Positions 8,379-63,155 of a stretch of DNA of 64,000 bases are shown here, piece by piece. The notes below the pieces were generated by a model. That model had not been told where the DNA came from and searched no databases. It saw nothing but the letters and a program-made list of their open reading frames with translations. A program made the position numbers and the translations under genes. Each line of letters starts with the position of its first letter. The first letter of the stretch is position 1. The stretch is from Kiritimatiellia bacterium (GTDB taxonomy: Bacteria; Verrucomicrobiota; Kiritimatiellia; CAIKKV01; CAITUY01): assembly GCA_038330175.1 (NCBI GenBank), contig JBBQNS010000005.1, positions 20 through 64,019 of the forward strand, given 5' to 3'.

Positions 8379-8649
8379 AAAATAGCGAATAGAATCACAA
8401 CTACTTAAAATCCAAGCACTAGCAACACAAAATAATTTACCGTTACCCCACTAATCCCTGCTAAAAATACAAGTTTGTAACAACCCGCCCTAAGTTAATG
8501 CAAATTTGTAGCATTCGCAGTAATTGATTTACCTTAATCGGGCACATGAAGCTCGCCTTAACCACTGATAAACAGACAAGTATTTAACAGAAGTCCGCCA
8601 GAGCCGCAAAGGTTTTGGGGGAGAGGCTTTCTTAAAAAGCACATTTTTC

Positions 8650-8890
8650 GCCAATCTAGCCGTACCCCAAACGCACCGAATCCTCGCCTAAGTAATCTAA
8701 GATCTCCAAAACACACTGTATCCACGTGGCTCAGCAAGCTTCGCCCTCCAGAAGAATCATCACCTCATTGTAGATCATGTCTTCTGGAGGGCGAAGCTTG
8801 CTGAGCCGCGTGAATACAGGGTGTATTGGGGATCTCAGCGGGATATTCAGATTGCTTAGGCGAGGATTGGGAAAACGCTTGAATCCATTG
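8650..8890. repeat. large imperfect palindrome / MITE-like element (arms ~105 bp, central perfect 26-bp stem 8729-8754 / 8781-8806)
   Basis: reverse complement of 8781-8890 aligns base-for-base with 8650-8754 (perfect core GCTCAGCAAGCTTCGCCCTCCAGAAG; flanks match incl. CTTAGGCGAGGATT); lies in divergent glnN/SDR intergenic region. Confidence 0.6.
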
Positions 8891-15548: not shown

Positions 15549-15625
15549 CACCCACCCCTAACCCCTCCAAGGAGGGGATCTCAATCGGGCTCCCCTCCTT
15601 GGAGGGGCAGGGGTGGGGTCTTGTG
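15549..15625. repeat. REP-like palindromic element, family A (CACCCCTAACCCCTCCAAGGAGGGG...CCCCTCCTTGGAGGGGCAGGGGTGG)
   Basis: ~75-bp near-perfect palindrome; second full copy at 58604-58674 and half copy at 47761-47790. Confidence 0.7.
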
Positions 15626-15885: not shown

Positions 15886-16668
15886 CTATAACGCATGAAT
15901 AAAATCCTTGAACTGCAAAATGCGGTCGCTGTTGCTCCGATTAAATAGCAAATGCTCAAAATCTTTTTTCTTTTTCGGGAGGTTGACGGATTCTAGTTTC
16001 GTGTTGATCGCTGCTTTCAGTACCCGCAGATTGCTGATTCCGCATTTTGTAGTGAGGAATCCATAATCTGGCTTTGCCTGTCCCAGTAGAAAAAGAGCAT
16101 CGTAAAAATCGCGCCCTTTCGCCCTGCTCAAAAGTGCGGAAAGCTTCATCGCGCACAGCACGGCGTCCGTCGGCACGGGGAAGGAGAAGACAAGACCGCA
16201 TCCCTTGATCAATGCCAGATCCTTGGCATACGCCATTCCCTGATCCTGCGCCTCAAGCTTGACCATGAACCGCTCGTCCTTGTGGCCTGACAAACCAAGC
16301 TCAAATAAAAGCTCGGGGAAAATGAGGCTCTTGCGGAAGGCTGTCAGTCGGCTGCTCTCCTGCGCCTTCAGAACGGCGTTGAAGCCGCTACGGACAAGAA
16401 AAGACGACACCTCCTGTGACATCTGATCAAAGTCTTCAGTGGAAAAATCTTTGCAGTCAAAATCCAAGTCCTCGGAAAATCGGTCAATACCCTTGACTAA
16501 CCGCAGGTTCGTTCCACCGATAAACACAAGGCGCCGGATATAAGAAGTCGTGGACAAGAAATCAAGAATCAGCAACTGAATATATTCCTTCAGGATATAC
16601 TTTTGAAAACGTGCATCACCCGAAAGGGCTTGCGGATAGAACGATGTGATTGCAGAGAGTGGCATCAT
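15886..16668 (-). CDS. abiEii: nucleotidyltransferase toxin, AbiEii/AbiGii family (type IV TA / abortive infection)
   Basis: 260-aa ORF with AbiEii-like N-terminal NTase region (RLVFIGGTNLRL...DLDFD); 4-bp overlap with upstream antitoxin gene. Confidence 0.7.
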   Translation of the reverse strand: MMPLSAITSFYPQALSGDARFQKYILKEYIQLLILDFLSTTSYIRRLVFIGGTNLRLVKGIDRFSEDLDFDCKDFSTEDFDQMSQEVSSFLVRSGFNAVLKAQESSRLTAFRKSLIFPELLFELGLSGHKDERFMVKLEAQDQGMAYAKDLALIKGCGLVFSFPVPTDAVLCAMKLSALLSRAKGRDFYDALFLLGQAKPDYGFLTTKCGISNLRVLKAAINTKLESVNLPKKKKDFEHLLFNRSNSDRILQFKDFIHAL

Positions 16669-17377: not shown

Positions 17378-17818
17378 TCACTGGGCCGACAAGGCGCTAT
17401 TCACGGCGGAAACCAAGGTGGCGGCATCCGTCACCCCGGAAAACTTCCTTAAAGGCTTTCCATTCTTGAAGATAATCAGTGCGGGAATGCTTTGGATGTT
17501 CAATTCACTCGCCACGTCACGGGCGGTCGCCACATTCAGCCTCGCCACGATCGCCTGAGTGTGGAGTTGATTCGCCACTGCCTCAACGATCGGTTCCTGG
17601 ATCTTGCAATCTCCGCACCAGGGAGCCCAGAAATCCACCAGAATCACTCCTTGCGCAATCTGCGAGTTGAACCCGGCGTCGTCCATAATCAGGACTCTTG
17701 AAGGCATAGCGTCATTTTCATCGGACACGATTTCCTTTTTTCCGCATCCTGTCAAAAGGGAGACGCAAAATAACACGATTACCCCCTTTGCAAAGGGTCG
17801 CTTGATGCCCTTATACAT
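17378..17818 (-). CDS. thioredoxin-family lipoprotein
   Basis: lipobox LLTGC; thioredoxin active-site variant WAPWCGDCK; start MYKGIKR at 17818 (longer ORF to 17938 lacks support). Confidence 0.75.
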   Translation of the reverse strand: MYKGIKRPFAKGVIVLFCVSLLTGCGKKEIVSDENDAMPSRVLIMDDAGFNSQIAQGVILVDFWAPWCGDCKIQEPIVEAVANQLHTQAIVARLNVATARDVASELNIQSIPALIIFKNGKPLRKFSGVTDAATLVSAVNSALSAQ

Positions 17819-18359
17819 GGGAAGCCTCCTGCGCAGGGTTGCGTAGCTGCGCCGCGAATGTATCGAACTCGGCGGCAATGTCATGGGAGAGAATCGTCGC
17901 AACCTTCGAGGCCGATATCTCCTTGCCTTGAACATCAACCCGAACCTGAAGCGACCGGTTGAGCGCCTCGATCTCTGATTGCATCCGGCGGATTTTCAAG
18001 TGCGTGGCAACACGCGCCTCAACCTCTTCAAACTGAAACGGCTTGGTCACATAGTCTACCCCGCCCGCTGAAAACGCTCTGACTTTGTCCGAAACCTCGA
18101 TATTGGCGCTGATAAAAATCACGGGGATTTCCGCGAGCAGAGGGTCCGCCTTAAGTTCCGCACACACCGCATAGCCGTCCATCTCCGGCATGTTGGTATC
18201 CAGCAGAATAAGATCCGGCAGTTCACAGCGAGCCGCAGCAAGGGCCGTCTTCCCATCCGCCACGGGGCGGACTCGATGTCCCCTTTTATTGAGCATCTCG
18301 GCGAGCAGGTGGAGGTTGGCAGGATTATCATCGACAATCATAATGTCCGCATTTATCAT
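17811..18359 (-). CDS. response-regulator receiver domain protein, truncated paralogue of REC-HD-GYP gene (no output domain)
   Basis: 182 aa; REC domain ~80% identical to 53091-54173 and 54170-55288 products; C-terminal tail aligns with REC/HD-GYP linker then stops; 3' end overlaps thioredoxin start by 8 bp. Confidence 0.8.
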   Translation of the reverse strand: MINADIMIVDDNPANLHLLAEMLNKRGHRVRPVADGKTALAAARCELPDLILLDTNMPEMDGYAVCAELKADPLLAEIPVIFISANIEVSDKVRAFSAGGVDYVTKPFQFEEVEARVATHLKIRRMQSEIEALNRSLQVRVDVQGKEISASKVATILSHDIAAEFDTFAAQLRNPAQEASHV

Positions 18360-18510
18360 GACTCATGATCGCTCATTCTAGGGCATCTGCCAATCGGGGG
18401 AAGGAGCATAAATGCCTGCGAAGTACCTTAGAAGCCTGCCGAACACAGGCTGTCCGGCAAGGTCATTTACCGGGTAAAACAGGAGTTTACCTTATAGTCG
18501 CTTGAGATTT
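18340..18510. repeat. duplicated junction segment (kinase 3' end - conserved leader - RR 5' end); second copy at 27200-27620
   Basis: near-identical blocks: CTGCCAATCGGGGGA(A/T)GGAGCATAAATGCCTGCGAA (18389-18420 vs 27293-27324), AGGAGTTTACC..ATAG.CG.TTGAG (18481-18506 vs 27591-27616), GGTGGAGGTTGGCAG (18309-18322 vs 27209-27223). Confidence 0.75.
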
Positions 18511-19733
18511 ATGATTTCGTTGATCAGTTTCAGCAGATGCCCTCCCGCCTGGAGAATCTGGCCGATACTTTCCTTCTGCTCAGGTGTCGGCGCCGGAGAA
18601 ACGGTCTCCAACAACTGAGCGAAACCAAGGATGGCATCGAGCGGGGAACGAAGCTCATGGCTTATTTTGGACAGAAAATCCGAGGTGGCCCGATTGGCGC
18701 TCTCCGCCTCTTCCTTGGCGTTTTCCAACTCGACATTCTTCTCTTGCAGTACCTGGTCCAGGCGTTTGGACTCCGTGATGTCACGCGCGGCGGCAAACAC
18801 ACCCTGTAATCTTCGATCCCGATCATAGAAGGTCGTCGCATTGTAGGACACCACGGTCTCCTTACCGTCCCTGTTTCGCGCGGTGAGTTCGTAATTGGTG
18901 AGTTTCCCTCCGGCCAGAACCTGCTTGATACTCGCCTCGGCGCGTTCCGGATCGGTAAAATAGTTCTTGAACGGCGCGCCGATCAACTCGTCACGCGTAC
19001 ATCCGGTAAGCGCCTCCATCTGCTTGTTGATATCGGTGATGATGCCCCTCGGATCGGTGGTCATAATCGCGTCAATATTGGATTCAAAAAGGGAGCGCGT
19101 ATAGAATTGCTGGTCGCGGAGACGCTGATCGAGCCTCATCTTCTCCTCTTCGACCAACTTGCGTGCGGCAAGAACGTGAGCGAGCTCCACGTTCTGACTG
19201 ACGGCATTCTCGTAGGTCGAGAGGAGCAGATCGAGGATATGGAGCCGGTCGGCGGTAACCAAGAACTGTTTTCCGGCGAAACAGATGTTGATTCCCATTT
19301 CGCTGGCGGGATCCTTGCGCATCTCCTGGTTTGCGATCACGTTCTGCACCCGCGCCAGAAGGGCATGGCCTTCGTAAGGCTTGCAGATGAAGTTGTTCGC
19401 CCCTGATTCGAGCCCGCGGATCACATCCTGCGGGTCGGAGAGCGAGGTGAGTAGAATCACCGGCAGGTGGCAAAACTGCGGGTCGGCGCGTAACGCCTTG
19501 CAGAGCGCATAGCCGTCCATCTCGGGCATTACGATGTCCGAAATGACCACATCGACTGCGCTCGCCTTGGCGGCCGCGAGCCCCTCCTTGCCGTTGGTCG
19601 CGGTGACGACCGAGTAGCCCGCCTCCTCGAGGAGAAACCGTAACTGCTCGCGTTGCGTTGGGCTGTCCTCGACGATCATGATCCTCACCGGTTGCGGTGT
19701 CGGGTTCGGGTTCGTATTCATGTGATTTTCCAT
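18492..19733 (-). CDS. REC-PAS-HisKA protein lacking HATPase_c domain (truncated kinase paralogue)
   Basis: 413 aa; N-terminal REC (VRIMIVEDS...D), PAS and H-box ISHELRSPL; residues ~200-413 are ~88% identical to residues ~475-690 of hybrid kinase 55285-58467; ORF stops (LKLINEIINLKRL*) exactly where paralogue continues into ATPase domain (LKLINEILDLAKIESGKL). Confidence 0.85.
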   Translation of the reverse strand: MENHMNTNPNPTPQPVRIMIVEDSPTQREQLRFLLEEAGYSVVTATNGKEGLAAAKASAVDVVISDIVMPEMDGYALCKALRADPQFCHLPVILLTSLSDPQDVIRGLESGANNFICKPYEGHALLARVQNVIANQEMRKDPASEMGINICFAGKQFLVTADRLHILDLLLSTYENAVSQNVELAHVLAARKLVEEEKMRLDQRLRDQQFYTRSLFESNIDAIMTTDPRGIITDINKQMEALTGCTRDELIGAPFKNYFTDPERAEASIKQVLAGGKLTNYELTARNRDGKETVVSYNATTFYDRDRRLQGVFAAARDITESKRLDQVLQEKNVELENAKEEAESANRATSDFLSKISHELRSPLDAILGFAQLLETVSPAPTPEQKESIGQILQAGGHLLKLINEIINLKRL

Positions 19734-26702: not shown

Positions 26703-27170
26703 TCAGCCGACTCCTTTCTCGGGTTCGCCGGCAGGGGAGCTCAAGGCGCGATCAATCGCCGTCTCCTCTTCGACGGAGAGCAGGCGATTGAGGTCGTGGA
26801 TCAGAACAAGTCCATCTTCGAGCTTGATCGCACCGGCAACGAACTCAAGCCGTGGCAGGATCTCACCCGCAGGAATGGTGTTCTCGTCCGTGGTCTCGAC
26901 CACCCCTTTCGTTTCATCAACCAACAGAGAGACGGTTCGCTTCCCGGTCGTGGCAACCATAAGATGATCGGACAAACGAATATCACGCGGCGGGTGGTTG
27001 AACCGTCCCCGCAGGTTGATGACGGGAATGACCTCGCCGCCGAGATCGATGATGCCCATGACGAGCGGGGGCGCCTTGGGAAGCGGCGTAATGGCAACGA
27101 CCCGAATGACGCGCCGCACGCAGGCGAGATCCAGCGCGTAACGCTGGTCGTCCAGAGAGAAGACCGCCAT
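26703..27170 (-). CDS. cheW: CheW-like coupling protein (first gene of che operon)
   Basis: CheW domain begins MAVFSLDDQRYALDL; the longer ORF to 27206 (MAEMISMKTKRHM...) is encoded by a remnant of a response-regulator 5' end. Confidence 0.75.
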   Translation of the reverse strand: MAVFSLDDQRYALDLACVRRVIRVVAITPLPKAPPLVMGIIDLGGEVIPVINLRGRFNHPPRDIRLSDHLMVATTGKRTVSLLVDETKGVVETTDENTIPAGEILPRLEFVAGAIKLEDGLVLIHDLNRLLSVEEETAIDRALSSPAGEPEKGVG

Positions 27171-27199
27171 ATGTCGTTTTGTTTTCATTGAGATCATCT

Positions 27200-27620
27200 C
27201 GGCCAACAGGTGGAGGTTGGCAGTGCAGGGTTATCAGTAATTATCAGGATATCCGCATCTATTCTTGTTTAGTCTTCCTCTTTCCAGAGCCTCTGCCAAT
27301 CGGGGGATGGAGCATAAATGCCTGCGAATTTCCTTAGTCCCTTACGACCTGAATCAATCGAATTATGGTCATGATTTGGGCAAGAAGAGAATTTGAACAG
27401 CCTCCTTCGCCAGTAGGTTACGGCGAGCCGAGGAAGCTCAGTAGAGTAGAGAAGGGGAAATAATTGCGCCTGCGGTGTACTCGCCGCTGGCGCCTTTGCG
27501 TGCTTCGTGTGCTTCTGTTAAATTTCTTCTTCTTAGTTCCGGCTACGCTGGATTAGGAATGCCGCGTAAGGTTATTCGACGTTGAAAATAGGAGTTTACC
27601 CCATAGCCGTTTGAGTTCCT
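27200..27620. repeat. second copy of kinase-3'/leader/RR-5' junction, interrupted by a partial family-B MITE (27440-27525)
   Basis: see 18340-18510; RR start remnant DNPA-LPTSTCWPR (frameshifted) at 27207-27262; kinase C-terminus remnant ...LKRLW with stop codon mutated (TAA->TGG). Confidence 0.7.
27440..27525. repeat. partial, inverted copy of MITE-like repeat family B
   Basis: reverse complement (GAAGCACGCAAAGGCGCCAGCGGCGAGTACACCGCAGGCGCAATTATTT) matches 51711-51770 almost exactly; one terminus only, with 7-bp internal duplication. Confidence 0.6.
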
Positions 27621-27661
27621 TCGTGCAACACTGTACCCAGGAACAATAAGGAGATCTTGAT

Positions 27662-28000
27662 ATGAACATGAATGGTATGAAGGTTTTAGGTGTGGTTGTA
27701 GTCGTTGGTGCTGTGATGGCCGTAGGATGTGGTAAGCGTTCAGAGTCCACGCCGGGAACGGCTGAAAAAGCCGCGGCTGCCGCTCAGAGCGCCGCCGAAA
27801 AGGCCAGGGAAGCCATGAATAACGCGGCGGAGCGAACTGGTGAAGCGGCGAAAACCGCTATCGAAAAATCCGATGAAGCGCTGAAGAGTGCTGCGGATGC
27901 AACGCAAAGCGTGACCAGTCAGGCAGTCATCAGGACGGGCGAAGCCATGGAAAAGGCGGGCGAGGCCATGGAAGATACCGGCAAGAAAATGCAGGAATAG
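27662..28000 (+). CDS. hypothetical alpha-helical lipoprotein (Ala/Glu/Lys-rich repeats)
   Basis: signal peptide + lipobox MAVGCG; low-complexity helical repeats. Confidence 0.55.
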   Translation: MNMNGMKVLGVVVVVGAVMAVGCGKRSESTPGTAEKAAAAAQSAAEKAREAMNNAAERTGEAAKTAIEKSDEALKSAADATQSVTSQAVIRTGEAMEKAGEAMEDTGKKMQE

Positions 28001-29087: not shown

Positions 29088-31130
29088 TCAAGGCAGAATA
29101 CGCACTTTTGCTTCACGATCCCACTGGCGCGTCTTGGCCGCGGCGATAAAGCCACGCGTATCCTCAACATCGACGACGCCACCATCGGATTCGACGCCGG
29201 CGGCACTCAGCAGCATCCGACCACCGTTATCGACGGCCATGGCCTTTAAGTGCGCAAAAGCATCGCTGACAAAATCCAGCGCCGCGCTTTCGCCTGTCAG
29301 TAGCGTGGCCGTTTCGTCCGACAAAACAACCGCTACCGCGTCAAACAACAGGGAAGGCAATCCGGAGATGATACCATCCGCAGCCAGCTTGGAGCCGTCG
29401 CTGAGTGTCGCACCGCCAACCTTGGGAGCCACGATCTTGAAAGCCGCGCCAGCGCCTTTAATCGCTTTTTGAATTTTTTTAATAGCCACCGCATCGGAGC
29501 CGTCACCAATGAGGATCGCCAACGTACGCCCTTCCAAAGTATCCTTCATCTTTCCAATTAATTGCAAAGCGGGCGACAGCTCCATATTGGTCACAGGTGC
29601 CGCTGTCTGAGGTGCCTCTGGCAAAGTTTCCATGCCTAATTGATTAGCCACGCGCTGCGCCAGATCCGCATCGATATGCCGCAGGTGTCCGACCATCGCC
29701 TCACGAACGTGCGGGTGATCGCACTTGGAGAACTCAAACACCATTGCCGCAGCGATATGCGTCTGTTCGTGCGGAGTTTGGCTGCGATAAAACTGACGAG
29801 CTTGGCTATAGTGATCGGCAAAACTTTCTGGCCGTGGGCGCCCCTTCGTTCCGCTCTCCGGGACAGTTGCACTGCGAAAACCACCTTTACCCACCTCACG
29901 TGGCGAAACAGCCGACAGCGAATTAGGTTCATAGGCGACTCGCCCCGTCTGTGGGGACATCTGCATATGGCCGTCGCGTTGATGGCTGCTAAACGGACAC
30001 TTGGGGGCGTTGATGGGAAGCTGGTGGAAATTTGGCGACCCCAGCCGCGACAATTGGGTATCCAGATATGAGAACAGACGCCCTTGCAATAGCGGGTCAT
30101 TTGAAAAATCAATCCCTGGAATAATATTGCCTGGGCAGAAGGCCACTTGTTCCGTGTCGGCAAAGAAGTTCTCCGGCCAGCGATTCAGCACCATCCGGCC
30201 TATTACCTTGAGGGGGACCAGTTCTTCAGGAATAAGCTTCGTCGGATCCAGATGGTCGATGGGGAACGCTTCGGCTTCTTTTTCGGTAAATAACTGTACT
30301 GCCAGCTCCCACTCAGGAAAATTCCCGGTCTTAATCGCCTCAAACATATCACGACGGTGGTAATCCGGATCGGCTCCCGATATTTTTACGGTCTCGTCCC
30401 AGATGGTAGACTGCAAGCCCAACTTGGGCCGCCAGTGGAACTTAACAAAGGTCGCATCACCGTCGGCGTTGATCAGTCGAAAGCTATGAATACCAAAGCC
30501 TTCAACCATCCGCAGCGATCGGGGCAGGGTCCGATCCGACATAATCCACATGACCATATGCATGGATTCGGGCGTCAGCGAGATATAGTCCCAGAAGGTA
30601 TCGTGGGCGGTAGCGGATTGGGGGAACGCCCGATCGGGCTCCATCTTGACGGCATGGACTAGGTCAGGGAATTTCATCGCATCCTGAATAAAGAACACCG
30701 GGATATTGTTGCCGACTAAATCCCAGTTGCCTTCTTTCGTGTAAAATTTAATGGCAAACCCACGGACATCCCGTGGCGTATCAATTGAACCAGCCCCGCC
30801 GGCGACGGTCGATATCCGTATAAAAATGGGCGTTTCTTCACCCACTTCAGTCAGAATTTTTGCGGTGGTATATCTTTTCAGCGAACTAGTGAGTTCAAAA
30901 AAACCATGTGCCCCTGTGCCGCGGGCGTGGACGACGCGTTCTGGAATGCGCTCATGGTCAAAGTGCATAATCTTTTCGCGCATAATGAAATCTTCGAGTA
31001 AGGCCGACCCGCGAGGATGGGCTTTGAGTGTGTTTTGGTCGTCAGCCAATTGCACGCCTTGATTGGTGGTCATCGGCGGGTGCTTGCCACCAGCGACTTG
31101 GTGGGTTTCACCCGTCGCAGACAAGGGCAT
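29088..31130 (-). CDS. katE: large-subunit (HPII-type) catalase, paralogue 1
   Basis: 680 aa; catalase core ([15 protein letters not shown], heme-binding region) plus C-terminal flavodoxin/DJ-1-like domain; ~80% identical to 41665-43821 product. Confidence 0.93.
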   Translation of the reverse strand: MPLSATGETHQVAGGKHPPMTTNQGVQLADDQNTLKAHPRGSALLEDFIMREKIMHFDHERIPERVVHARGTGAHGFFELTSSLKRYTTAKILTEVGEETPIFIRISTVAGGAGSIDTPRDVRGFAIKFYTKEGNWDLVGNNIPVFFIQDAMKFPDLVHAVKMEPDRAFPQSATAHDTFWDYISLTPESMHMVMWIMSDRTLPRSLRMVEGFGIHSFRLINADGDATFVKFHWRPKLGLQSTIWDETVKISGADPDYHRRDMFEAIKTGNFPEWELAVQLFTEKEAEAFPIDHLDPTKLIPEELVPLKVIGRMVLNRWPENFFADTEQVAFCPGNIIPGIDFSNDPLLQGRLFSYLDTQLSRLGSPNFHQLPINAPKCPFSSHQRDGHMQMSPQTGRVAYEPNSLSAVSPREVGKGGFRSATVPESGTKGRPRPESFADHYSQARQFYRSQTPHEQTHIAAAMVFEFSKCDHPHVREAMVGHLRHIDADLAQRVANQLGMETLPEAPQTAAPVTNMELSPALQLIGKMKDTLEGRTLAILIGDGSDAVAIKKIQKAIKGAGAAFKIVAPKVGGATLSDGSKLAADGIISGLPSLLFDAVAVVLSDETATLLTGESAALDFVSDAFAHLKAMAVDNGGRMLLSAAGVESDGGVVDVEDTRGFIAAAKTRQWDREAKVRILP

Positions 31131-31359: not shown

Positions 31360-31854
31360 TTACCGGAAGTAGTACCGTACACCTACCGCCGCATTCATAT
31401 CAAAATCCGTATCAGGCGCAACATCAAGCACCGGTACGATCTCCAGAAAGACATCCATCGGCGTATGCGCAAATATATACGAGATGCCTAGAGGTATCCG
31501 TATCCCAACAAGCGCATCATCATTGTTCCGACCGTGCCCATCGTTTTCGTCCTTTAACTTTACTCGCGCTCCAATACCTGCATACAGGGGGAAGCGACCC
31601 TCGAAGTCCGGGGTACGTAAGATCTGGTCATTGTGCACCAGGTAGTCCACATGAAACTGCACTGAGTCGTTCTCGGAAAACGACCATCCTATACCGACAT
31701 CGATCGCATCACGTGCTGATATCCATTTCTTGATGCTAACACCGGTGGGTTCTCCCACCATGACACCTACACCCAGCCCGGGGTCCGCAGCGTTACTTGC
31801 CGTGGCGACACCTACAACCAATACGCTCATCACTAATAACCACTTCTTCATCAT
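31360..31854 (-). CDS. small outer-membrane beta-barrel protein (hypothetical)
   Basis: signal peptide; alternating amphipathic strands; C-terminal aromatic YYFR-type terminus typical of OMPs. Confidence 0.5.
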   Translation of the reverse strand: MMKKWLLVMSVLVVGVATASNAADPGLGVGVMVGEPTGVSIKKWISARDAIDVGIGWSFSENDSVQFHVDYLVHNDQILRTPDFEGRFPLYAGIGARVKLKDENDGHGRNNDDALVGIRIPLGISYIFAHTPMDVFLEIVPVLDVAPDTDFDMNAAVGVRYYFR

Positions 31855-32208
31855 TATTCTCCTTTGTTTTTTTCTCTATTGCGGTCCCAGAGTCGCATAC
31901 GTGAATCGACACGACTATCGGGAAAAGGCAAATAGATTAGTTCGAAAAACCTTAAAATAAATTCAGTTTTAAAAAGCATTTTCAAGAATGAGCCCACACG
32001 AGATCGTACTCTATGCGCACTAAATCCGAACGTTGAATTGAGTTCTTGCTACAACCCGTTCGGACATGAAACTCAGGCAAGTCGATTTTCGGGAGCAGTC
32101 AAGTGGAGTCCCCTAAAACACCAATGGAGGGCCGATGCACGACCCTCCATTGGCACATTGCGTATTGCAATGATCGATTTTCAGGCTCGATACCACCAGC
32201 TCGAAAAA

Positions 32209-32739
32209 CTATTTATCTTCCGGTGGAGTCGTTTCACCTGTGCTGGAAATATCTTCAGCACCCGCCGCCTTAAAGATTTCTTTCGCCCGCTTGATCTCGT
32301 TTGAGTCCTCGGTATGAACAGAAATCAGAACGTTGCCGCTCTTGACTTTTCCTTCGTAACGCTTGGCTTCGTACTCGGGAATACCGAGTCCAATCAGCGC
32401 GCCGGTAATGCCCCCAACAGCACCGCCCAAGGCGGCACCACCGAGCGCGGCCATGATCGGACCAGCTGCAATAAAGGGACCTACTCCAGGGATAGCCAGC
32501 GCGCCGATCCCGGCGAGCCACCCAAGTGCGCCACCGAGCACGCCACCCGTGACACCACCCGTGGTTGCGCCTTCCGGAGCCTTCGTGTGTTGTTCATGAG
32601 CGAAGTCCTTAGTACCACTCTTGTCCGCCAATAACACGGAGATGTCATTATTGGAAAAATTGGCGGCCTTCAGTTGATCCACAATACGGATAGCTTGGGG
32701 CTGACTTTTTGCGATACAGAGTACAGATGTTTTTGACAT
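32209..32739 (-). CDS. general-stress-type protein with glycine-zipper membrane segment (YflT/DUF1269-like)
   Basis: 176 aa; Gly-zipper (GGVTGGVLGGALGWLAGIGALAIPGVGPF...) between soluble domains. Confidence 0.45.
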   Translation of the reverse strand: MSKTSVLCIAKSQPQAIRIVDQLKAANFSNNDISVLLADKSGTKDFAHEQHTKAPEGATTGGVTGGVLGGALGWLAGIGALAIPGVGPFIAAGPIMAALGGAALGGAVGGITGALIGLGIPEYEAKRYEGKVKSGNVLISVHTEDSNEIKRAKEIFKAAGAEDISSTGETTPPEDK

Positions 32740-32768
32740 GATGATTTGTTCCTTTTTTGTTTTTTTGT

Positions 32769-33230
32769 TTACTGGTTAGCTTTTACTTCGAGCTGGTCGT
32801 CCACGTTGCCGTCACCGGCAACGCTGTTGGCAAGTGCCGCGATGCTGGTTTTTTCCTCAACCGTGTTGACAGGTCCACGTAACGTGACCTTACCGTCGAC
32901 CGTGATGATTTTGATGTTCTTCGCAGTGATCGAGTAATCGGTCGGCCCACTCACGAGCGATTTTCGTACTCTCTGAGTGATGTCCCGATCCACCTCGGAA
33001 TTGCCCTGGTCGCCGGGAGTAAGAGTCGCGTCGTTACGATCGCGTACGTTCACCCGACTGTTGTTTGCGTCTACCGGCGCTGTGGTAGTAACCCGATCGG
33101 AATCCGGTACACCATTCACGGAAGATTTGTTCTTCTCGTTGCAGCCTACCAATAACACGAACATAGGCATCGCTAAACCTAATGTCATTGCGACGCGTTG
33201 TTGTTTAAATTTACGTGTAATGTTTTTCAA
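32769..33230 (-). CDS. BON-domain lipoprotein (OsmY-like)
   Basis: lipobox LLVGC; C-terminal BON domain (ITAKNIKIITVDGKVTLRGPVNTVEEK). Confidence 0.65.
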   Translation of the reverse strand: MKNITRKFKQQRVAMTLGLAMPMFVLLVGCNEKNKSSVNGVPDSDRVTTTAPVDANNSRVNVRDRNDATLTPGDQGNSEVDRDITQRVRKSLVSGPTDYSITAKNIKIITVDGKVTLRGPVNTVEEKTSIAALANSVAGDGNVDDQLEVKANQ

Positions 33231-34590: not shown

Positions 34591-34656
34591 ACCAACCCTC
34601 TTTTCTTTTTTGTTTTTTCGTTTCCTGTTTTTACCCTGTTATCGCCGTGCCACGTC

Positions 34657-34764: not shown

Positions 34765-34953
34765 TTCTTCTCCTCCTTCTTTTAATAATCAAATTACAGC
34801 GAAAGCGATACAACCGCTATCGGGCATCTTCTTACTTAACACTTCTAATTTCCTTATCACTGACAGGCGAAACACTGCCTGGATTTATCCTTAGCGCAGG
34901 TACGCTGATAGCGCGGTCATATAGGAGCGAGCGCGGATTCAGCCATCAGTGCG

Positions 34954-35292
34954 TTACTTGCGACGCAATGCCAGTTGGCGGATGAGAGCACCTACACCGA
35001 GCGCGATGGCGATGGCGTGGTAGGGGTGCTCGTGCACGATTTTGTTGGTCAACTTCGCCCCCTCTCCCGCCTTGTCTTCGACGCGGCCGAGCAGTGACTT
35101 GCCGCTATCGAGCGCTTTCGAAAGCCGCGTTCGGGCTTCCTTGGCGGTTGACTTGGTTGCGTGGGCGGTTGCGTCGAGCAGGGCGCGGCCCGCCTCAGCA
35201 AGCTTCTCATTCACATTGGATTCCGGTTTTCGTTTGGGCGTATTCGCCGCATTGACTCTTTTGTCTGTGCTTTGCTTGACTGTTGTTTTCAT
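34954..35292 (-). CDS. DUF883 (ElaB/YqjD) family membrane-anchored stress protein
   Basis: 112 aa; C-terminal HEHPYHAIAIALGVGALIRQLALRRK signature. Confidence 0.7.
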   Translation of the reverse strand: MKTTVKQSTDKRVNAANTPKRKPESNVNEKLAEAGRALLDATAHATKSTAKEARTRLSKALDSGKSLLGRVEDKAGEGAKLTNKIVHEHPYHAIAIALGVGALIRQLALRRK

Positions 35293-35659: not shown

Positions 35660-36012
35660 CTTCGTCTCCTAGTTGATGAAACACCTGACACTCAGATTCG
35701 ATGCCGACTCACATTGATGAATGTCAGGAATAACCTACAAAAACGAGTGACTCTTTCCTATCGGGCTAAGGATCACTCTGCGGTTCGAAAAACCTTAGAG
35801 TTCCATGCAAGTTGGTGTCGCCTAATGTATATGTTCAGGTATACCCGCATGGAAACAACAAAATCAGAGCTGCCAGCGCAGACCACCGCTCCAATTGAAT
35901 TGGGAATGACATTGGTCGATCAGGGAAAAATCCTTGCGGCAGCAGGTAGCGAAGGCCGAAAACACCCTGGTTCCTGGGTGTCAGGCTGCGAACGCCAAGT
36001 AACCCTCTGGTT

Positions 36013-41664: not shown

Positions 41665-43821
41665 TTAGGCGAGTGTTCGTACGGACTTCTCGCGATCCCA
41701 TTGCCGCGTCGTTGCAGCAGCGATAAATGCGACTTTGTTATTGGCATCTATGACGCCCGCGTCCTGTTCAACATTTGCTATTTTCAAAAGCGCGTGGCCG
41801 CCTTTGTCGACGGCGATTGCCTTAAGATGGCCGAAGGCATCGCGCACGAAATCGATTGCGGCGCTTTCCACCGATAGGGCCTTGGCACCCTCTTCAGAGA
41901 GAATAACGGCCACTGCGTCGAACAGGACCGAAGGCGTTCCCGCCAATTGTCCATCCGCCGGCAGCATCGAGCCATCGGCGAGTTTCGCGCCGCCGACCTT
42001 GGGCGCGACGATCTTCACGGCCGCCCCCGCGTCGGTCGCAGCCTTCTTGATCTTCTTGATGACCGTGCCATCTGAACCATCTGCGATTAGGATGGCGATG
42101 GCGCGCCCCTCAAGGGTGTTCTTCATTTTGCCGATGATCTGCAATGCAGGTGATGGCGCCATTTTCTTCACAGGCGCAGCGGCCGCCGGGGCATCGGGCA
42201 TCTTGTCGAACGTAAGGCCCGCCGCAACCCGCTTCGCCAAGTCCTCCTCTATGTGTCGCAGGTGTCCCACCATCGCCTCACGCACGTGGATGTGCTCAAC
42301 CTTGGAAAGCTCAAACACCAACGCCGAGGCGATGTGCGCCTGCTCATACGCAGTTTGGCTGAGATAAAACTGCCGCGCCTGACTGTAGTGGTCGGCGAAG
42401 CTGTCGGCACGGATGCGGCCCTTCTCGCCGGTGTCCACTACGGAAGCGCTATGGAAACTCTTCACCGGCGTTTCGCGCGGTGAGTTGCCGGATAAGGAGT
42501 TAGGCTCATAGGCAACACGGCCCGTCGGCTGTCCCATCTGCATGTGTCCGTCACGTTGCTGGTTACCGAACGGGCACTTGGGTGCGTTGATCGGGATCTG
42601 ATGGAAGTTGGCTGAACCCAGGCGCGACAACTGCGTGTCGAGGTAGGAGAACAATCGACCCTGTAATAGTGGATCATTTGAGAAATCGATGCCTGGCACC
42701 ACGTTGGCAGGGCAAAAGGCAACCTGTTCGGTTTCGGCGAAGAAATTGGCCGGCCAGCGATCCAGCACCATGCGGCCGATCACTTTTAATGGCACCAACT
42801 CTTCGGGAATCAGCTTGGTAGCGTCCAGATGATCGAAGGGGAATCTGTCGGCCTCCTCCTGCGTGAAGAGCTGAACCGCGAATTCCCACTCGGGAAATTT
42901 GCCCGCCGCGATGGACTCGAACATGTCGCGGCGGTGGTAGTCCGGGTCCGCGCCGGCAATCTTGACGGTCTCATCCCAGATGGTGGACTGCAAGCCGAGC
43001 TTGGGACGCCAATGAAATTTGACGAAAGTGGACTTACCTGCCGCATTGATCAGCCGAAAACTATGCACGCCAAAGCCTTCGATCATCCGCAACGAACGCG
43101 GCAGTGTGCGATCAGACATGATCCACATCACCATGTGCATAGCTTCAGGCGTAAGCGAAATGAAATCCCAGAACGTGGAGTGCGCGGTTGCCGATTGCGG
43201 AAAACCGCGGTCGGGTTCCATCTTGACGGCATGGATGAGGTCGGGAAACTTGATGGCATCCTGGATGAAGAATACCGGGATGTTGTTGCCGACCAGGTCC
43301 CAGTTGCCTTCCTTGGTGTAGAACTTGATGGCAAAACCGCGTACGTCACGAGGGGTATCCACCGAACCGGCGCCGCCTGCGACGGTCGATATGCGAGTAA
43401 ACACGGGGGTCTTCTCACCGACCTCGGTGAGTATCCTGGCGGTAGTGTATTGTTGCAACGAGGAAGTCAGCTCGAAGAAGCCATGCACGCCTGTCGCGCG
43501 CGCATGGACAATACGCTCCGGAATGCGTTCGTGATCGAAATGGGTGATCTTTTCGCGAAGGACGAAGTCCTCCAAGAGGGTCGGGCCGCGCGTATTGGCC
43601 CGTAGCGAGTTTTGATTGTCGGAAACGGGGAGGCCTTGATTGGTTGTCAGCACAGGGTGATCCGCGCCGGCGACCTGGTGCCGTTCCCCTCCACTTCCCA
43701 AGTGGCCTTCTTCGAGCGCAGCGGCAAAACCAACTTTCTTCTTATTGGTCTCTGTGCTGTTGCGGGCTTTTTTTTTCGTTTTCATGATACTACTTCCCTC
43801 CTGAAGTCGATCATCTCTCAT
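41665..43821 (-). CDS. katE: large-subunit (HPII-type) catalase, paralogue 2
   Basis: 718 aa; K-rich N-terminal extension; ~80% identical to katE paralogue 1. Confidence 0.93.
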
Positions 43822-44402: not shown

Positions 44403-44522
44403 GACTTCAACTCTCCTTTTCTATTAGTTACGGTTTTATCACTCACTACCCGGCACTGTAGAGTAGACCGGACATGGGTGGCCATCAGGCACCGGATGAT
44501 ATATGTATTCGAATTACCTTAC

Positions 44523-46671: not shown

Positions 46672-46791
46672 GGTGCAGCGATAGACGCCATAAAACTTAA
46701 GGCTTTTAGATCTGAAAAATAAGGGTGTTCCCGATACCACGGATCCAGCACATCGCCTATCGTGTCGTCATTATAAAGAAGGAGATAAACG

Positions 46792-47385
46792 ATGAAAACA
46801 TATCTAGGCGAACTACCCTATGCGCAGGCTGCTCTAGAACCCTATATCACCTCTAAGACGATGAGCTTCCACTACGGAAAACATCACCAAGCTTATGTGG
46901 ACAACCTGAACAAGCTCGTCGCCAATACGCCTTTGGCGGATCAATCGCTTGAAAAGATCATTTCCGATACAGCGGGCGCGGCGGACAAGGCGGCGGTTTT
47001 CAACAACGCGGCCCAAGTGTGGAACCACACCTTCTTCTGGCAAAGCATGAAGGCGGGAGGAGGAGTCGAGCCGACGGGAAAATTGATGGAGCGGATCAAG
47101 AAATCCTTCGGTAGTTACGCGGAGTTCAAGAGCGCCTTCGTGGCAGCAGGGCTCGCGCAATTCGGTAGTGGCTGGGTGTGGTTGGTACAGGAAGGTGAGA
47201 CCGTGAAGATCATCAAGACGGCGAACGCGGACACGCCCGTGGCACACGGGCAAACCGCACTCCTGACGTGCGACGTATGGGAACACGCCTACTATCTTGA
47301 CTACCAGAACCGGCGGAAGGATTTCCTAGAAACGTTCCTTGAGCATCTGGCGAACTGGGATTTTGCAGTATCGCAGATGAAGTGA
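46792..47385 (+). CDS. sod: Fe/Mn-family superoxide dismutase
   Basis: 197 aa; HYGKHH, DVWEHAYYLDYQN metal-ligand motifs. Confidence 0.92.
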   Translation: MKTYLGELPYAQAALEPYITSKTMSFHYGKHHQAYVDNLNKLVANTPLADQSLEKIISDTAGAADKAAVFNNAAQVWNHTFFWQSMKAGGGVEPTGKLMERIKKSFGSYAEFKSAFVAAGLAQFGSGWVWLVQEGETVKIIKTANADTPVAHGQTALLTCDVWEHAYYLDYQNRRKDFLETFLEHLANWDFAVSQMK

Positions 47386-47591: not shown

Positions 47592-47760
47592 AGTCCTTAT
47601 GCGCAAGGAGCGTCCGCCCGTCATTCTGGTGGTCCACGCACTGTCGGCGGCGACGGCCTTGGTGGTGCTCATCGTTCCTGCAGTCACGGGCACGGGTATA
47701 TAAGGAGATGGCGTGTTCCGAGCGGAGCGGGCTGTCTCCAGAACCACCTCTATGAATTGA

Positions 47761-47790
47761 TCCCCTCCTCGGAGGGGTTAGGGGTGGGTT
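47761..47790. repeat. half copy of REP-like palindrome family A
   Basis: TCCCCTCCTCGGAGGGGTTAGGGGTGGGTT. Confidence 0.55.
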
Positions 47791-47994
47791 CTACCTCTAC
47801 ATTGGCCGAGACTTGTGCGCTATAATCATCCATGTTGACAAGGTTTAGCAACGATTCTGCAACACGAGTGTAGTCGCTGATTGAGCGTAGCTAAGGTCTT
47901 TCTTTCCAACGGCGAGACGCCGTTGCCACTTTCCTCAGACTTCCTGATCCCGGTGGGACTGGCATTAACCCAGCACCTATAAATGGCCTAGTCT

Positions 47995-48424: not shown

Positions 48425-48735
48425 AGAAAGCGAACGTTTTTGTAAACGGTCATTTGGCGGGTTGCCTTGAAGAATGGGAGCCGGGTCACCACTACAAATT
48501 CCGCTACCAAACCGACTATGAGGGCCCCCCCGTTTCCCTTACGATGCCCACTTCGGAATCTGAATATACCTACAACCGTTTCCCGCCTTTTTTCGACGGC
48601 GTACTTCCTGAAGGCATCATGCTGGAGGGGTTGCTCAAGCAGAATAAAATAGACCGGTTGGATTACTTCAGCCAACTGATGACGGTGGGGAACGATCTGG
48701 TTGGGTCGGTCACCGTGAAAGCGGTGGAATCATGA
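48421..48735 (+). CDS. hipS: HipS (HipA N-terminal subdomain-like antitoxin of tripartite HipBST)
   Basis: 104 aa resembling HipA_N coupling domain; stand-alone ORF overlapping hipT. Confidence 0.7.
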   Translation: MKKANVFVNGHLAGCLEEWEPGHHYKFRYQTDYEGPPVSLTMPTSESEYTYNRFPPFFDGVLPEGIMLEGLLKQNKIDRLDYFSQLMTVGNDLVGSVTVKAVES

Positions 48736-49679
48736 ACCGCTGCCCGATCACTTATGAAACCTGCGGAACCGATCGCTACTCACTGGCCGGTCTGCGCCGG
48801 CTGGCGCCGGGCCTGACCCGACTCCATGACTTCCCTTACAGCGCGGAAACCCAGCGGCGTGAAGCCACCCTCCGCGCCTCCAAGATGTCAATCCAGGGCA
48901 TACAGCCGAAGTTGAGCGTGACCCTGCGTATCAAGGCGGGCACATTCGAAATCGTGGATCGTGGCGGACGTTATATTATTAAGCCCCAACACGAACTTTA
49001 TCCTGAATTACCTGAAAACGAGGCTGTCACCCTGGGCATGGCAGGCCTGGTTGGTATCGAGGTTCCCGTGCAAGGCTTACTTTACTGTCAGGATGGATCC
49101 CGCTCATTTTTCATTCGGCGGTTTGACCGAACGGGACACGGCCAGAAGCTGGCCACTGAGGATTTCGCCCAATTGAGTGGGTTTAGCCGGGATACGAAAT
49201 ACAACTCCAGCATGGAACAGGTAGTGGAGGTCATCAACCGGTATTGTACGTTTCCCCTGCTTGAAAAGGTGAAGCTCCTGAAGCGGTGCCTTTTCAACTT
49301 TCTGGTTGGCAACGAGGATATGCACCTGAAGAATTTTTCCCTCATCACACGGGATGGCAAAGTTGAACTCTCGCCTGCCTATGATTTCCTAAGCACCACT
49401 GTGGCCTTCATGGCCATCGGTAAGAAAGCGGGAGATATGGAAGAGATCGCCCTGTCGATCAAGGGCCGGAAGAAAAAAATGAGTCAAACCCTGTGGCTTG
49501 ATTACTTCGCTGGAGAGCGCTTGGGCCTCAATCAAAATAGTGTGGTGGATTGCCTCCATGAATTGGCTACGGCCTTGCCGGGCTGCCGACAACTGCTGGA
49601 CATATGCTTCCTGTCGGACGCCCAGAAGCGACTCTACCATGACCTATTGGCTCAACGCGGCCAATTACTAGGTCTGTGA
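48732..49679 (+). CDS. hipT: HipT (HipA-like Ser/Thr kinase toxin lacking N-subdomain)
   Basis: 315 aa; HipA_C kinase core (catalytic ...VGNEDMHLKNFSL...). Confidence 0.8.
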   Translation: MNRCPITYETCGTDRYSLAGLRRLAPGLTRLHDFPYSAETQRREATLRASKMSIQGIQPKLSVTLRIKAGTFEIVDRGGRYIIKPQHELYPELPENEAVTLGMAGLVGIEVPVQGLLYCQDGSRSFFIRRFDRTGHGQKLATEDFAQLSGFSRDTKYNSSMEQVVEVINRYCTFPLLEKVKLLKRCLFNFLVGNEDMHLKNFSLITRDGKVELSPAYDFLSTTVAFMAIGKKAGDMEEIALSIKGRKKKMSQTLWLDYFAGERLGLNQNSVVDCLHELATALPGCRQLLDICFLSDAQKRLYHDLLAQRGQLLGL

Positions 49680-51665: not shown

Positions 51666-51683
51666 AATGGCTCAATCCGGCAT

Positions 51684-51843
51684 AGCCGAAACCAAAACGA
51701 AGATTTTTGAACAGAAGCACGCAAAGGCCCCAGCGGCGAGTACGCCGTAGCCGTAATTATTTTTGGAATTCAAACACCTGGCATTTTTGCCGAAGGCGTA
51801 AACACTCCATCCTTAGCGGCCTTCGCGTGCTTCTGTTCAAAAC
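51684..51843. repeat. MITE-like repeat family B, full copy (terminal inverted repeats TTTTGAACAGAAGCACGCAAAGG / CCTTCGCGTGCTTCTGTTCAAAA)
   Basis: TIRs at 51705-51727 and 51819-51841; additional copies at 62435-62573 and partial at 27440-27525; all in 5' leaders of minus-strand genes. Confidence 0.65.
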
Positions 51844-51876
51844 TCTTTTCTTGTCCTAATCATGAACATATTTCGA

Positions 51877-53090: not shown

Positions 53091-54173
53091 CTACTGAAGG
53101 TCCGTGAAGATTGCCTCAAACTCAGTAGCCATATTTTTGAAAGCGGCAAGCACCCGCGCGTCGAAATGGTTGGGGTTGCTCCGCCCGTCCCCGCCGACGA
53201 GAATCGCGTAGGTCTTTGCGGCATCAAATGCCGGCTTGTAAGGGCGCTTGTTCCGCAGGGCATCATACTGGTCGGCCAAAGTCATGATCCGCGCGGTTAA
53301 CGGAATGGACTCTCCTGAAAGTCCCCCGGGATAACCACTTCCATCCCAGCGCTCGTGGTGAGATTGGGCAACTTCCATACCCATTCGAACGAAGCCATTG
53401 TTCGGATAGCTCGCCAGAACCGCCGCGAGGGTCTTGGCTCCCAGTGTCGTATGGGTTTTCATAATGTCCAATTCCTCGGCTGTGAGCGCCCCAGGCTTTA
53501 GTAAAATCCTGTCGGGAATACCCACCTTGCCGATATCGTGCAGGGCACTGGCCTGGTAGATGTTCTCGATAAAAGTATCGTTTATAAGCGTGCCGAACAC
53601 GCCATCTTCAGCCAGACGGGTTGCTAGGGCCCGGCAGTACCGCTGAACCCGGAGAATGTGGTTGCCGGTATCTTCGTCGCGGGATTCTGCCAACTTGGCA
53701 AAGGCGACGATCGTTGCAATTTGCGAGTCCGAGATCTCCTTAACTTGCGCTTGAACCCGATCCTTAAGAGAGAGGTTGAGCGCCCCGATCTCAACCTGCA
53801 GCCGCCTTATTTTAAGGTGAGTCTCAACTCGCGCCTCCACCTCTTCAAACTGAAATGGTTTGGTTACATAATCCACGCCGCCCATGGAAAAGGCCTTAAC
53901 TTTGTCCAATACCTCTGTATTGGCACTGATAAAAATCACGGGAATTTCAGCAAGCCGGGGATCCGCCTTGAGCTCCGTACAGACGGCATAGCCATCCATC
54001 ACCGGCATGTTGATGTCGAGAAGAATGAGGTCAGGCGGCGCGAGTCGCGCCGCCTGCAGGGCCAGCTTACCGCTGGGGACCGGACGTACTTTGTGCCCAT
54101 GTTTCTTGAGCAACCCAGCCAACAGTTGAAGGTTGGCAGGCGTATCATCAACGATGAGGATGTCAGCATTCAT
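53091..54173 (-). CDS. response regulator with HD-GYP c-di-GMP phosphodiesterase domain
   Basis: 360 aa; REC + HD (HDIGK) + HHERWDGSGYP. Confidence 0.88.
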   Translation of the reverse strand: MNADILIVDDTPANLQLLAGLLKKHGHKVRPVPSGKLALQAARLAPPDLILLDINMPVMDGYAVCTELKADPRLAEIPVIFISANTEVLDKVKAFSMGGVDYVTKPFQFEEVEARVETHLKIRRLQVEIGALNLSLKDRVQAQVKEISDSQIATIVAFAKLAESRDEDTGNHILRVQRYCRALATRLAEDGVFGTLINDTFIENIYQASALHDIGKVGIPDRILLKPGALTAEELDIMKTHTTLGAKTLAAVLASYPNNGFVRMGMEVAQSHHERWDGSGYPGGLSGESIPLTARIMTLADQYDALRNKRPYKPAFDAAKTYAILVGGDGRSNPNHFDARVLAAFKNMATEFEAIFTDLQ

Positions 54174-58467: not shown

Positions 58468-58603
58468 CTGGTCTTGTCCGCCTATCAGGGCAAAGCTGAT
58501 AAAGCCCAGCGAAATACCTTACGGGCGCTACTGCGAGAGGGAATCCAGAATTCAGAATCCAGGAGTCAGAATATTGGATTTTACTGTCATGCGGTAAACA
58601 AGA

Positions 58604-62358: not shown

Positions 62359-62434
62359 GGGGATCCAGTTGCATGAGAGTTATACGCTTGGAAGGACAGA
62401 ACGACAAGCAGTCCCTATAGACCTAACCCGACTG

Positions 62435-62902: not shown

Positions 62903-63155
62903 ATAACCTTCTTTATTAATGATTTTTTACGTTCTTACAAGGAAATTCTAGCCAGAACGGTGCCCTAATTGGAATCGGCAGAACCCTTATATTGCGGGTG
63001 GATAAACCTTAGAGGAGTCAGGTGTAGTCGCCTGTGTCCTCACAGGCGTGGCGGAAAGAGCGCGGCTGGGGACAGCCGCTACTACACAAAGAGGGCGCGA
63101 AACACGTGTAGGGCTAACGATCGCTGCTGCTGCGCACGTTATACCGAAGTTCGCC

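Follow-up and report, generated by a model that had tools for sequence, protein, structure and literature searches.

What does a chemotaxis operon do with the remains of a response regulator gene in its leader? The question is raised by a stretch of 64,000 nt from a Kiritimatiellia bacterium (contig JBBQNS010000005.1 of assembly GCA_038330175.1; hereafter the window), which is approximately one whole contig of a metagenome-assembled genome (MAG) and in which the DNA upstream of cheW repeats the DNA between a kinase gene and a response regulator gene at 18.4 kb. Probably, cheW and the truncated regulator gene are each driven by a copy of one duplicated, regulator-dependent promoter module of the sigma70 type. 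The module is built around a DNA element of 40 nt, here called the box, that occurs at ten places in the window and in the genomes of many other bacteria.

Two segments are common to both loci: 27185-27337 aligns with 18284-18431 and 27568-27615 with 18459-18506 in a repeat search, in MAFFT and in blastn. BLAST gives 75% identity over 113 nt for 27225-27337 against 18319-18431 (E 8.8e-21) and 75% for the second segment (E 3.7e-5), while the spacer between the matching segments is 230 nt in the 27-kb copy vs 27 nt in the 18-kb copy. An earlier, sequence-only reading of the locus had described four blocks and an insertion here as a transplanted copy of the leader and the 5' end of the regulator gene; the blocks and the insertion lie where it placed them, and the alignments bear out the duplication. 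In global alignment the core block (18388-18430 vs 27294-27336) has 40 of 43 positions identical, against 36 of 48 (75%) in block ii of that reading, 17 of 28 (61%) between the core block and the ATG, and 63 of 81 (78%), with indels, in the first 27 regulator codons, so that the claim of a leader block better conserved than its flanks also stands. Nearly all genes of the window are carried on the minus strand, where Pfam gives the order cheW (26703-27188), cheR-TPR, cheW, a gene of a CHASE3-containing methyl-accepting chemotaxis protein, cheA-REC and cheB, then the gene of a REC-PAS-HisKA protein (18492-19733), a gap of 132 nt and the gene of a 182-aa receiver protein (17811-18359). A paralogous locus at 53-58.5 kb encodes a 1060-aa PAS kinase, a REC-kinase and a REC-HD-GYP protein.

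The homologous upstream DNA thus stands before non-homologous genes, with junctions at 18506|18507 and near 27190. On the cheW side the regulator remnant reads DADILIITDNPA, followed by a 5-nt insertion and NLHLLAEM. It is frameshifted, as had been described, but the MKTKRHM extension of CheW, which had been regarded as spurious, is not: KTKRHMAVFSL aligns with ATERPLVVFSL of homologues, MKTKRH is the genuine N-terminus of CheW, and upstream of ATG 27188 'AEMIS' alone derives from the remnant. Since the homologues show the authentic N-terminus, cheW is likely to start at ATG 27188, and the regulator stub from 27262 to about 27192 would be 5' untranslated region (UTR). The closest CheW is 78% identical. 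On the other side, the homology of the 18-kb kinase to its 56-kb paralogue ends at 18507, where the homology to the 27-kb copy starts, with a GAG microhomology at the kinase|duplicate junction. Thus, the open reading frame (ORF) of the kinase runs into box DNA, and its end 'LKRL*' is not kinase sequence. What had been taken for a kinase C-terminal remnant in the che leader (blocks i and ii) is actually a second, divergent copy of the box. That block ii might be kinase sequence carried on in decayed form ('L-KRL*GKL' vs 'LAKIESGKL', 15/27 nt by hand count) was also considered and rejected, because the block is a good box copy, which leaves junction microhomology at most. The receiver protein loses its homology to the REC-HD-GYP paralogue at residue 164.

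The box was first suspected from a weak match upstream of the 1060-aa kinase gene (E 2e-4) and weaker ones at 44.5 and 35.8 kb. Its pattern in the contig is TAAGGWWNTTCG-N20-CCYGATDG, with fixed spacing. The looser TAAGGNNNTTCG-N15-25-CYGAT, in the building of which the 31.9-kb match played no part, finds six matches of identical spacing, each of them minus-strand; the number expected from shuffles is 0.00. When the 40-nt pattern is allowed two mismatches at most, eight are found, including one on the plus strand at 27567 (block ii), and the free positions of these eight sites score at the 96th-99.9th percentile of window sequence. A position weight matrix (PWM) from other genomes gives ten sites at 20-38 bits, the next best position reaching 2.3 bits; the two sites that it adds are those upstream of a superoxide dismutase (SOD) gene and at 63 kb. 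The ~36-nt block of the sequence-only reading is real and conserved, but rather than a private motif of the leader it is one of ten window copies of this box, and the 8 further copies are not in any duplicate of the 18-kb/27-kb type. The genes behind the boxes are those of two large catalases (each after a small upstream gene), SOD, DUF883 and DUF3996 proteins, a lipoprotein-like protein, the PAS-kinase operon, the receiver protein and the che operon. At 18 kb, two boxes stand back to back, 27 nt apart, one facing the receiver gene and the other the 3' end of the kinase gene. In the 27-kb copy, the plus-strand box ends 52 nt before the ATG (27662) of a gene with a good Shine-Dalgarno sequence that encodes a lipoprotein-like protein of 112 aa (27662-28000).

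In a collection holding one genome per species, the 40-nt pattern is found at no fewer than 115 loci in many phyla, where about 50 chance matches would be expected across the whole collection by the author's estimate. The family statistics rest on 113 usable sites from these loci. In 78 of the 113, a leave-one-out test places the free middle positions above the 99th percentile of shuffles, and the family consensus, TAAGGTtTTTCGAAgcc.aaaaTcAGg.ttTcCCtGATtG, has 19 conserved positions that the pattern had left free. In 65% of sites the box closes with TTG at index 37. TAnnnT has a sharp maximum at index 60 (29% of the 113 sites vs 2-3% at other offsets), 17 bp after the hexamer starting with TTG; the relaxed nAnnnT is found there in 46% vs a background of ~8%, and in 6 of 7 window copies checked by eye. 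The -35 and -10 hexamers, with their 17-bp spacer, thus stand at a fixed distance from the site, and the box, as judged from its sequence context, forms the -35 part of a sigma70-type promoter and the part upstream of it. A generic promoter scan independently calls TTGGCA-17-GATCAT at 18393-18365. Within the family box lies a 7-3-7 dyad, ATCAGGG-N3-CCCTGAT, centred near -42 (pairs over 113 sites: T-A 89, C-G 76, G-C 85 and 76). Divergent box pairs are present in other genomes too. A strict 34-nt pattern from the three most similar copies had 0 matches in genome contigs and metagenome contigs; in the sequences searched, the private version of the leader block is confined to this lineage, and the looser bipartite pattern alone is spread.

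The che leader (27190-27615) and the leader of the truncated regulator gene (18360-18506) would be two copies of one compact divergent promoter region, each consisting of two back-to-back modules of ~65 bp. The proposed module comprises the 40-bp box, TAAGGTTTTTCGAA-N8-ATCAGGG-N3-CCCTGATTG, the last three bases of which would be the TTG of the -35 hexamer, and a TAnnnT -10 hexamer after a 17-bp spacer. The box would extend from about -72 to -33, with its dyad near -42, which is the geometry of a class II activator site and points to activation rather than repression. The minus-strand module at 27336-27271 would transcribe cheW via a 5' UTR made of the dead regulator N-terminus, and the plus-strand module would drive the 112-aa gene at 27662.

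Two alignments of predicted start points deserve mention beside this scheme. The ATG of the receiver gene (18359) and the second in-frame ATG of the 1060-aa kinase gene (58449) sit at box index 71-72, which is the predicted transcription start. The receiver mRNA, with its ATG at index 71, and the kinase mRNA may accordingly be leaderless, the kinase starting at MPKITHKS. A general leaderless rule was rejected, as ATG is not enriched at index 71-72 across the box family.

Another explanation could be that the box itself constitutes the -35 and -10 elements of an alternative, sigma28-like sigma factor. The consensus of sigma28 in Escherichia coli and Bacillus subtilis is TAAA-N15-GCCGATAA, and che operons are its typical targets. 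In the box, TAAGGTTT resembles the sigma28 -35 element TAAAGTTT and CCCGATAG the -10 element GCCGATAA; the che operon suits such a factor, and conservation across phyla is what a sigma-factor promoter would be expected to show. Nevertheless this reading is unlikely, since 22 nt instead of 11 separate TAAGGTTT from CCCGATAG, invariantly in every copy, and do not fit the TAAA-N15-GCCGATAA spacing, a separate TTG-N17-TAnnnT follows at a fixed distance downstream, for which a self-sufficient promoter would have no need, and most targets of the box are neither flagellar nor chemotaxis genes. Readings of the two blocks as sites of sigma54, sigma32, sigmaB or OxyR and other LysR-type regulators were, like sigma28, rejected for misfits of spacing or sequence; for sigma54, the GG-N10-GC spacing (TGGCAC-N5-TTGCW) was not seen by eye in or after the box in any window copy.

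It is improbable that the locus represents neutral segmental duplication only, with the 43-nt identity due to chance or recent gene conversion and the che operon transcribed from elsewhere, for example from within the inserted repeat. The duplicate does hold clearly dead DNA in the frameshifted regulator codons, the -10 proposed for cheW is weak, and the excess conservation of the core block reaches a P of only ~2e-3 (binomial by hand, 40/43 given 74% flank identity, with the block boundaries taken independently from the cross-genome box family). However, the block coincides exactly with the motif found independently at 8 other places of the window and at least 115 other loci, and the insertion is located between the two boxes, not inside them. 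The sequence-only reading, which had preferred a functional promoter or operator to neutral DNA, was right in kind, and it is the further copies in the window and in other genomes on which this rests.

Equally little weight is given to the idea that the box belongs to a small mobile repeat carrying a promoter, able to spread both inside a genome and from one genome to another, without being a selected binding site. Several genomes have 3-9 boxes among the matches listed, one MAG having up to nine, with ~110 nt of common flank and one tandem locus, the phyla concerned are very distant, and 'putative mobile promoters' across phyla are on record (Nijveen, Matus-Garcia and van Passel 2012; PMC3575422). 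The window copies, however, have nothing in common beyond the box and the -10, except for the 18-kb/27-kb pair, they are without terminal repeats or target duplications, and in the box conserved and free positions are distributed as expected of a binding site; even a box of mobile origin could serve as an operator. The MAG in question (CAYXGW01, labelled Deferribacteres) holds nine boxes, among them those at loci L081 (2935-2974 and upstream), L007, L018, L047, L068, L071 and L111. Six of eight inspected boxes have common flanks (upstream TCCTTTTCCTTAC, downstream a TATATT region), and L081 has two tandem boxes 44 nt apart, which looks like local amplification of the whole promoter module.

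A structured RNA leader, a riboswitch or a small conserved peptide is very hard to credit: the fixed orientation upstream of genes, an AGGAG-N5-ATG that opens an ORF of 18-21 codons on the plus strand of the 18-kb and 27-kb copies and a minus strand reading LRYFAGIYAPSPDWQ vs VRYFAGLYQLCPDRR at 58 kb would suit it, but RNAalifold finds no structure on the transcribed strand (6 weak pairs only on the other), no Rfam family matches the window at gathering score or 16 related loci at E up to 1, at the variable dyad pair A stands opposite C in 34 sites and covariation is absent (Fisher P 0.26), the inferred -35 and -10 follow downstream of the box, the 58-kb copy is without the ATG, and the differences between the 18-kb and 58-kb copies fall 4/4/5 on codon positions 1/2/3 by hand count, which is no coding signature. 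The last two observations also led to the rejection of a coding remnant or small peptide LRYFAGIYAPSPDWQ and of the plus-strand small ORF (MPAKY...). With no covariation, no consensus RNA fold and no Rfam family, the box is a DNA site, and the RNA element that the sequence-only reading had offered as an option is not supported.

The protein that binds the box was sought by clustering all ORFs within 3 kb of the 113 sites. At 18 of them a REC+GerE protein of 214-242 aa is encoded on the same strand and ends 5-474 nt upstream of the box, usually preceded by a ~420-aa HisKA_3+HATPase kinase, and two further loci have such a regulator inside the operon that follows the box. Identity to the regulator of reference locus L005 is 43-80% in the 17 other loci, which come from several phyla. 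The regulators score below every NCBIfam equivalog cut-off (the best being MctR, 193 bits vs 300), and the closest solved structure is NarL. Gene linkage and the class II position of the dyad make this family the best candidate, and the box would most likely be bound by a conserved response regulator of the NarL/LuxR type, as a dimer, whose gene lies elsewhere in the genome. The arrangement of kinase, NarL-type regulator, box and target recurs across phyla with the same target: an ammonium transporter gene follows the box at L005, L019, L098 and L117, and a conserved ~400-aa ORF, presumably an N-acetylmuramoyl-alanine amidase as judged by eye only, follows ~400 nt after it at L010, L069, L074, L099 and L104. 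These recurrences hint at ancestral targets of the system.

In this lineage the box would mark a regulon of oxidative and general stress genes (two catalases, SOD, DUF883, DUF3996) together with signalling genes, and the duplication would bring the chemotaxis operon into it. Going further, it is possible, though this is put forward tentatively, that the box serves as operator to a deeply conserved NarL-family two-component system not yet described, with a site nearly unchanged across more than 10 phyla, which was recruited here to place catalases, SOD and stress proteins under one control with a chemosensory pathway, the che operon being wired in by duplication. The phyla with the box include Desulfobacterota, Nitrospirota, Planctomycetota, Acidobacteriota, the Planctomycetes-Verrucomicrobia-Chlamydiae (PVC) group, Riflebacteria and Chrysiogenota.

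As for the order of events, the three junctions fit one tandem duplication followed by two deletions of redundant halves. A tandem duplication of [promoter region - regulator - che genes - 5' kinase] would have created the kinase|promoter junction at 18506/18507; a deletion in the first copy would have removed the DNA from regulator codon ~24 to cheW; and a deletion in the second copy, from the start of the HD-GYP part of the regulator onward, would have taken the duplicated che genes and the kinase. Later, the MITE-like repeat (MITE, miniature inverted-repeat transposable element) may have entered the spacer between the divergent modules. The direction of 'transplant' assumed in the sequence-only reading is probably wrong: the plus-strand box is intact and faces a gene at 27.6 kb, while its counterpart at 18.46 kb is decayed and faces nothing (PWM scores in Table 1), which suggests that the promoter region is native, or older, at 27.6 kb and that the 18.4-kb copy is secondary.

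The insertion had been described as half a MITE. It is indeed inserted in the segment, but at ~210 nt it is a full-length, internally degenerate copy that aligns end to end, in reverse orientation, with 51674-51884 and partially with 62422-62584. One of its terminal inverted repeats has a 14-nt gap and the other an 8-nt duplication; those of the 51-kb copy are 30 nt long and 93% complementary. With three copies of ~160-210 nt and a fragment at 8582-8612, the element is short, non-coding, multi-copy and bounded by terminal inverted repeats, as MITEs are. Two Logan contigs from the same sample (SRR19962012) stop at 27505 and 27506, within the repeat, as is expected of a multi-copy element. Its remaining flanks of 12 nt and ~11 nt match neither each other nor, cleanly, the 27-nt spacer of the 18-kb copy, and both boxes beside it were left intact. 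The fragment at 8582-8612, a piece of the terminal repeat of the MITE, adjoins a large hairpin-forming inverted repeat (8697-8838; 59-nt arms, 90% complementary, 24-nt loop). Intergenic REP-like palindromic repeats (ACCCACCCCTAACCCCTCCAGGGAGGGGA and its complement) at 15550-15619, 47759-47792 and 58604-58673 are unrelated to the MITE-like family.

Several observations weigh against a duplicated, regulator-dependent promoter module as the explanation of this locus. The cheW -10 hexamer, AAGACT, is weak, scoring 8/12 by hand count, under the 9/12 threshold of the generic promoter scan, which does not list it; transcription starts, placed ~7 nt after the -10, are predicted rather than mapped. No NarL-type regulator gene is present within the 64-kb window, linkage to such a gene is seen in 16% of the loci only, and adjacency is not binding. 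The dyad is degenerate at 18, 27 (minus strand), 31, 35 and 44 kb, partly kept in the plus-strand copy at 27 kb and kept at 58 kb, the sole minus-strand window copy where it is usable (TATCAG...CTGATA); with the left arm degenerate in most window copies, where TAAGGWWNTTCG and CCYGATDG alone are kept, binding of a symmetric dimer is uncertain here. In other phyla the box is followed by genes of diverse kinds (receiver domains, PAS kinases, ammonium transporters) that give no common physiology; as they are mostly signalling genes with a few ammonium transporters, the stress theme seems specific to this lineage. The 40/43 identity could also be explained by gene conversion between the copies. 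The three-step history, the most economical one, is one of several that fit, and a search of contigs with CarB >90% identical offers it no help: the nearest genome found has carB alone in common, at 83% nucleotide identity and without synteny.

Table 1. Positions of the box copies, predicted promoter elements, duplicated segments and adjoining genes in the window
Feature	Coordinates	Strand	Remarks
cheW	26703..27188	-	Heads cheW-cheR-cheW-mcp-cheA-cheB operon; Pfam CheW; NCBI product 161 aa
REC response-regulator remnant	27192..27262	-	~24 N-terminal codons, frameshifted; 27192-27223 91% identical to 18291-18322; most of inferred cheW 5' UTR
Inferred weak -10 AAGACT before cheW	27271..27276	-	Box index 60-65, by family position rule; predicted transcription start near 27264
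Box, che operon (block iii of the sequence-only reading)	27294..27336	-	Exact pattern match; ends in -35 TTGGCA (27299-27294); PWM 31.6 bits
MITE-like repeat, full length, degenerate	27350..27556	.	In spacer between two back-to-back boxes
Box, divergent copy (block ii and 'kinase remnant')	27567..27609	+	TAAGGTTATTCG-N20-CCCCATAG, then -35 position; faces gene 27662-28000; one pattern mismatch; PWM 31.8 bits, rank 6 of 128,000 window positions; unconstrained middle at 99.9th percentile
Inferred -10 AACACT	27627..27632	+	Box index 60-65, by position rule from family
Response regulator (REC)	17811..18359	-	74% identical to REC-HD-GYP paralogue 53091-54173 across residues 1-164, then truncated before HD-GYP domain
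Box, response-regulator gene	18388..18430	-	-35 TTGGCA (18393-18388); pattern and PWM match
Decayed box	18458..18506	+	PWM 0.1 bits vs 31.8 for 27-kb counterpart; truncated kinase ORF enters and stops (LKRL-TAA, 18492-18494)
REC-PAS-HisKA protein	18492..19733	-	Cut within HisKA helix 2; without HATPase domain; paralogue of 1060-aa kinase 55285-58467
Box, DUF3996 and large catalase (29088-31130)	31915..31954	-	Upstream of these genes; pattern and PWM match
Box, one mismatch	34817..34856	-	Downstream of DUF883 gene; TGTAAT -10 at family position
Box	35758..35797	-	Upstream of small ORF and DUF883 gene (34954-35292)
Box	44482..44521	-	Upstream of 186-aa gene and second large catalase (41665-43821)
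Box	46698..46737	+	94 nt upstream of Fe/Mn superoxide dismutase gene; TATCGT at index 60-65
Box	58482..58521	-	Upstream of PAS-kinase / REC-kinase / REC-HD-GYP operon
Box	62972..63011	-	Upstream of 71-aa membrane ORF; PWM match

Some features of the genes in Table 1 and of their neighbourhood may be added. The last 18 residues of the receiver protein (17811-17867) are unrelated to the REC-HD-GYP paralogue, and the ORF overlaps a thioredoxin ORF (17378-17938); this 3' end is the deletion junction that took away the HD-GYP output domain. The 1060-aa kinase gene contains three tandem 426-nt repeats (57084-58235, 74-81% identical), giving a triplicated PAS module. Stress genes form a dense island (29088-31130, 31360-31854, 32209-33230, 34954-35292, 41665-43821, 46792-47385 and 63156-63899) with two large catalases, Fe/Mn-SOD, two DUF883 (ElaB/YqjD-like) genes, DUF3996, and BON and YflT-like proteins; several of them are located behind a box, which suggests an oxidative or general-stress regulon. 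An A-rich stretch (minus strand AAAAAACAAAAAAGGA) is common to 31856-31884, 32741-32785 and 34594-34630, at 31.86 kb directly upstream of the DUF3996 start codon, and may be a common translation-initiation or UTR element. The region is flanked by toxin-antitoxin or defence genes, an AbiEii-type toxin gene (15886-16668) and a HipA-like kinase gene (48732-49679).

The duplication itself is ordinary, and the box family is the more interesting of the two. An odd-looking scar becomes readable as regulatory evolution, in which a promoter-operator module, with the stub of its former gene, would now drive a chemotaxis operon and link taxis to a stress regulon. Sharply defined by its 40 bp, its fixed spacing and its fixed distance to the -10, and linked to a specific regulator family, the box gives a way into a regulon that many uncultured anaerobic lineages have. 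Any genome can be scanned for it, and many genes of unknown function could thus be given a regulatory context. Neither the box nor the duplication overturns existing concepts.

Insertions of MITEs into intergenic regulatory regions are familiar from the Correia, ERIC and REPIN elements. The repeat found here is likewise a non-coding element of ~210 nt with terminal inverted repeats, present in several copies and located in a promoter region; unlike them, it occupies the spacer between two divergent promoters and shows no sign of supplying a promoter or terminator. Near-identical upstream regions before unrelated genes of one genome (cheW and the REC regulator), and a similar motif across phyla, recall the promoter reuse described as putative mobile promoters (PMC3575422). 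The copy described here differs in carrying a fragment of the donor gene and in flanking a 9-kb block; this speaks for duplication with later deletion and not for a self-mobile unit. The chemotaxis and flagellar promoters of sigma28 (FliA) have -35 and -10 elements that the two conserved blocks of the box resemble, but the blocks are too far apart by one helical turn, and a separate -35/-10 stands downstream of them.

The closest likeness is to promoters of NarL/FixJ regulators with their LuxR-type helix-turn-helix domain. NarL binds heptamer pairs in the 7-2-7 arrangement, and DosR and NreC bind GC-rich palindromes or LuxR-type boxes centred near -42.5 and overlapping the -35. The box similarly has two 7-bp arms (ATCAGGG-N3-CCCTGAT) at about -42, overlapping the -35 of a sigma70-type promoter, and in many genomes a REC+GerE regulator with a HisKA_3 kinase is encoded beside it. 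It differs in the sequence of its arms and their 3-bp gap, in an additional invariant block further upstream, TAAGGTTTTTCGAA (about -72 to -59), which has no counterpart there, and in the missing left arm of most window copies. A literature search returned no relevant paper for the box sequence on either strand, a search for NreC sites was swamped by unrelated words, and Rfam has no such family; being found in neither Rfam nor the searchable literature, the box, with its extra upstream block and its spread across phyla, seems to belong to a familiar class without having been described before. In working terms, the box promoter may be regarded as a response-regulator-dependent class II promoter, of the kind represented by the NarL, DosR, NreC or LuxR-type sites.

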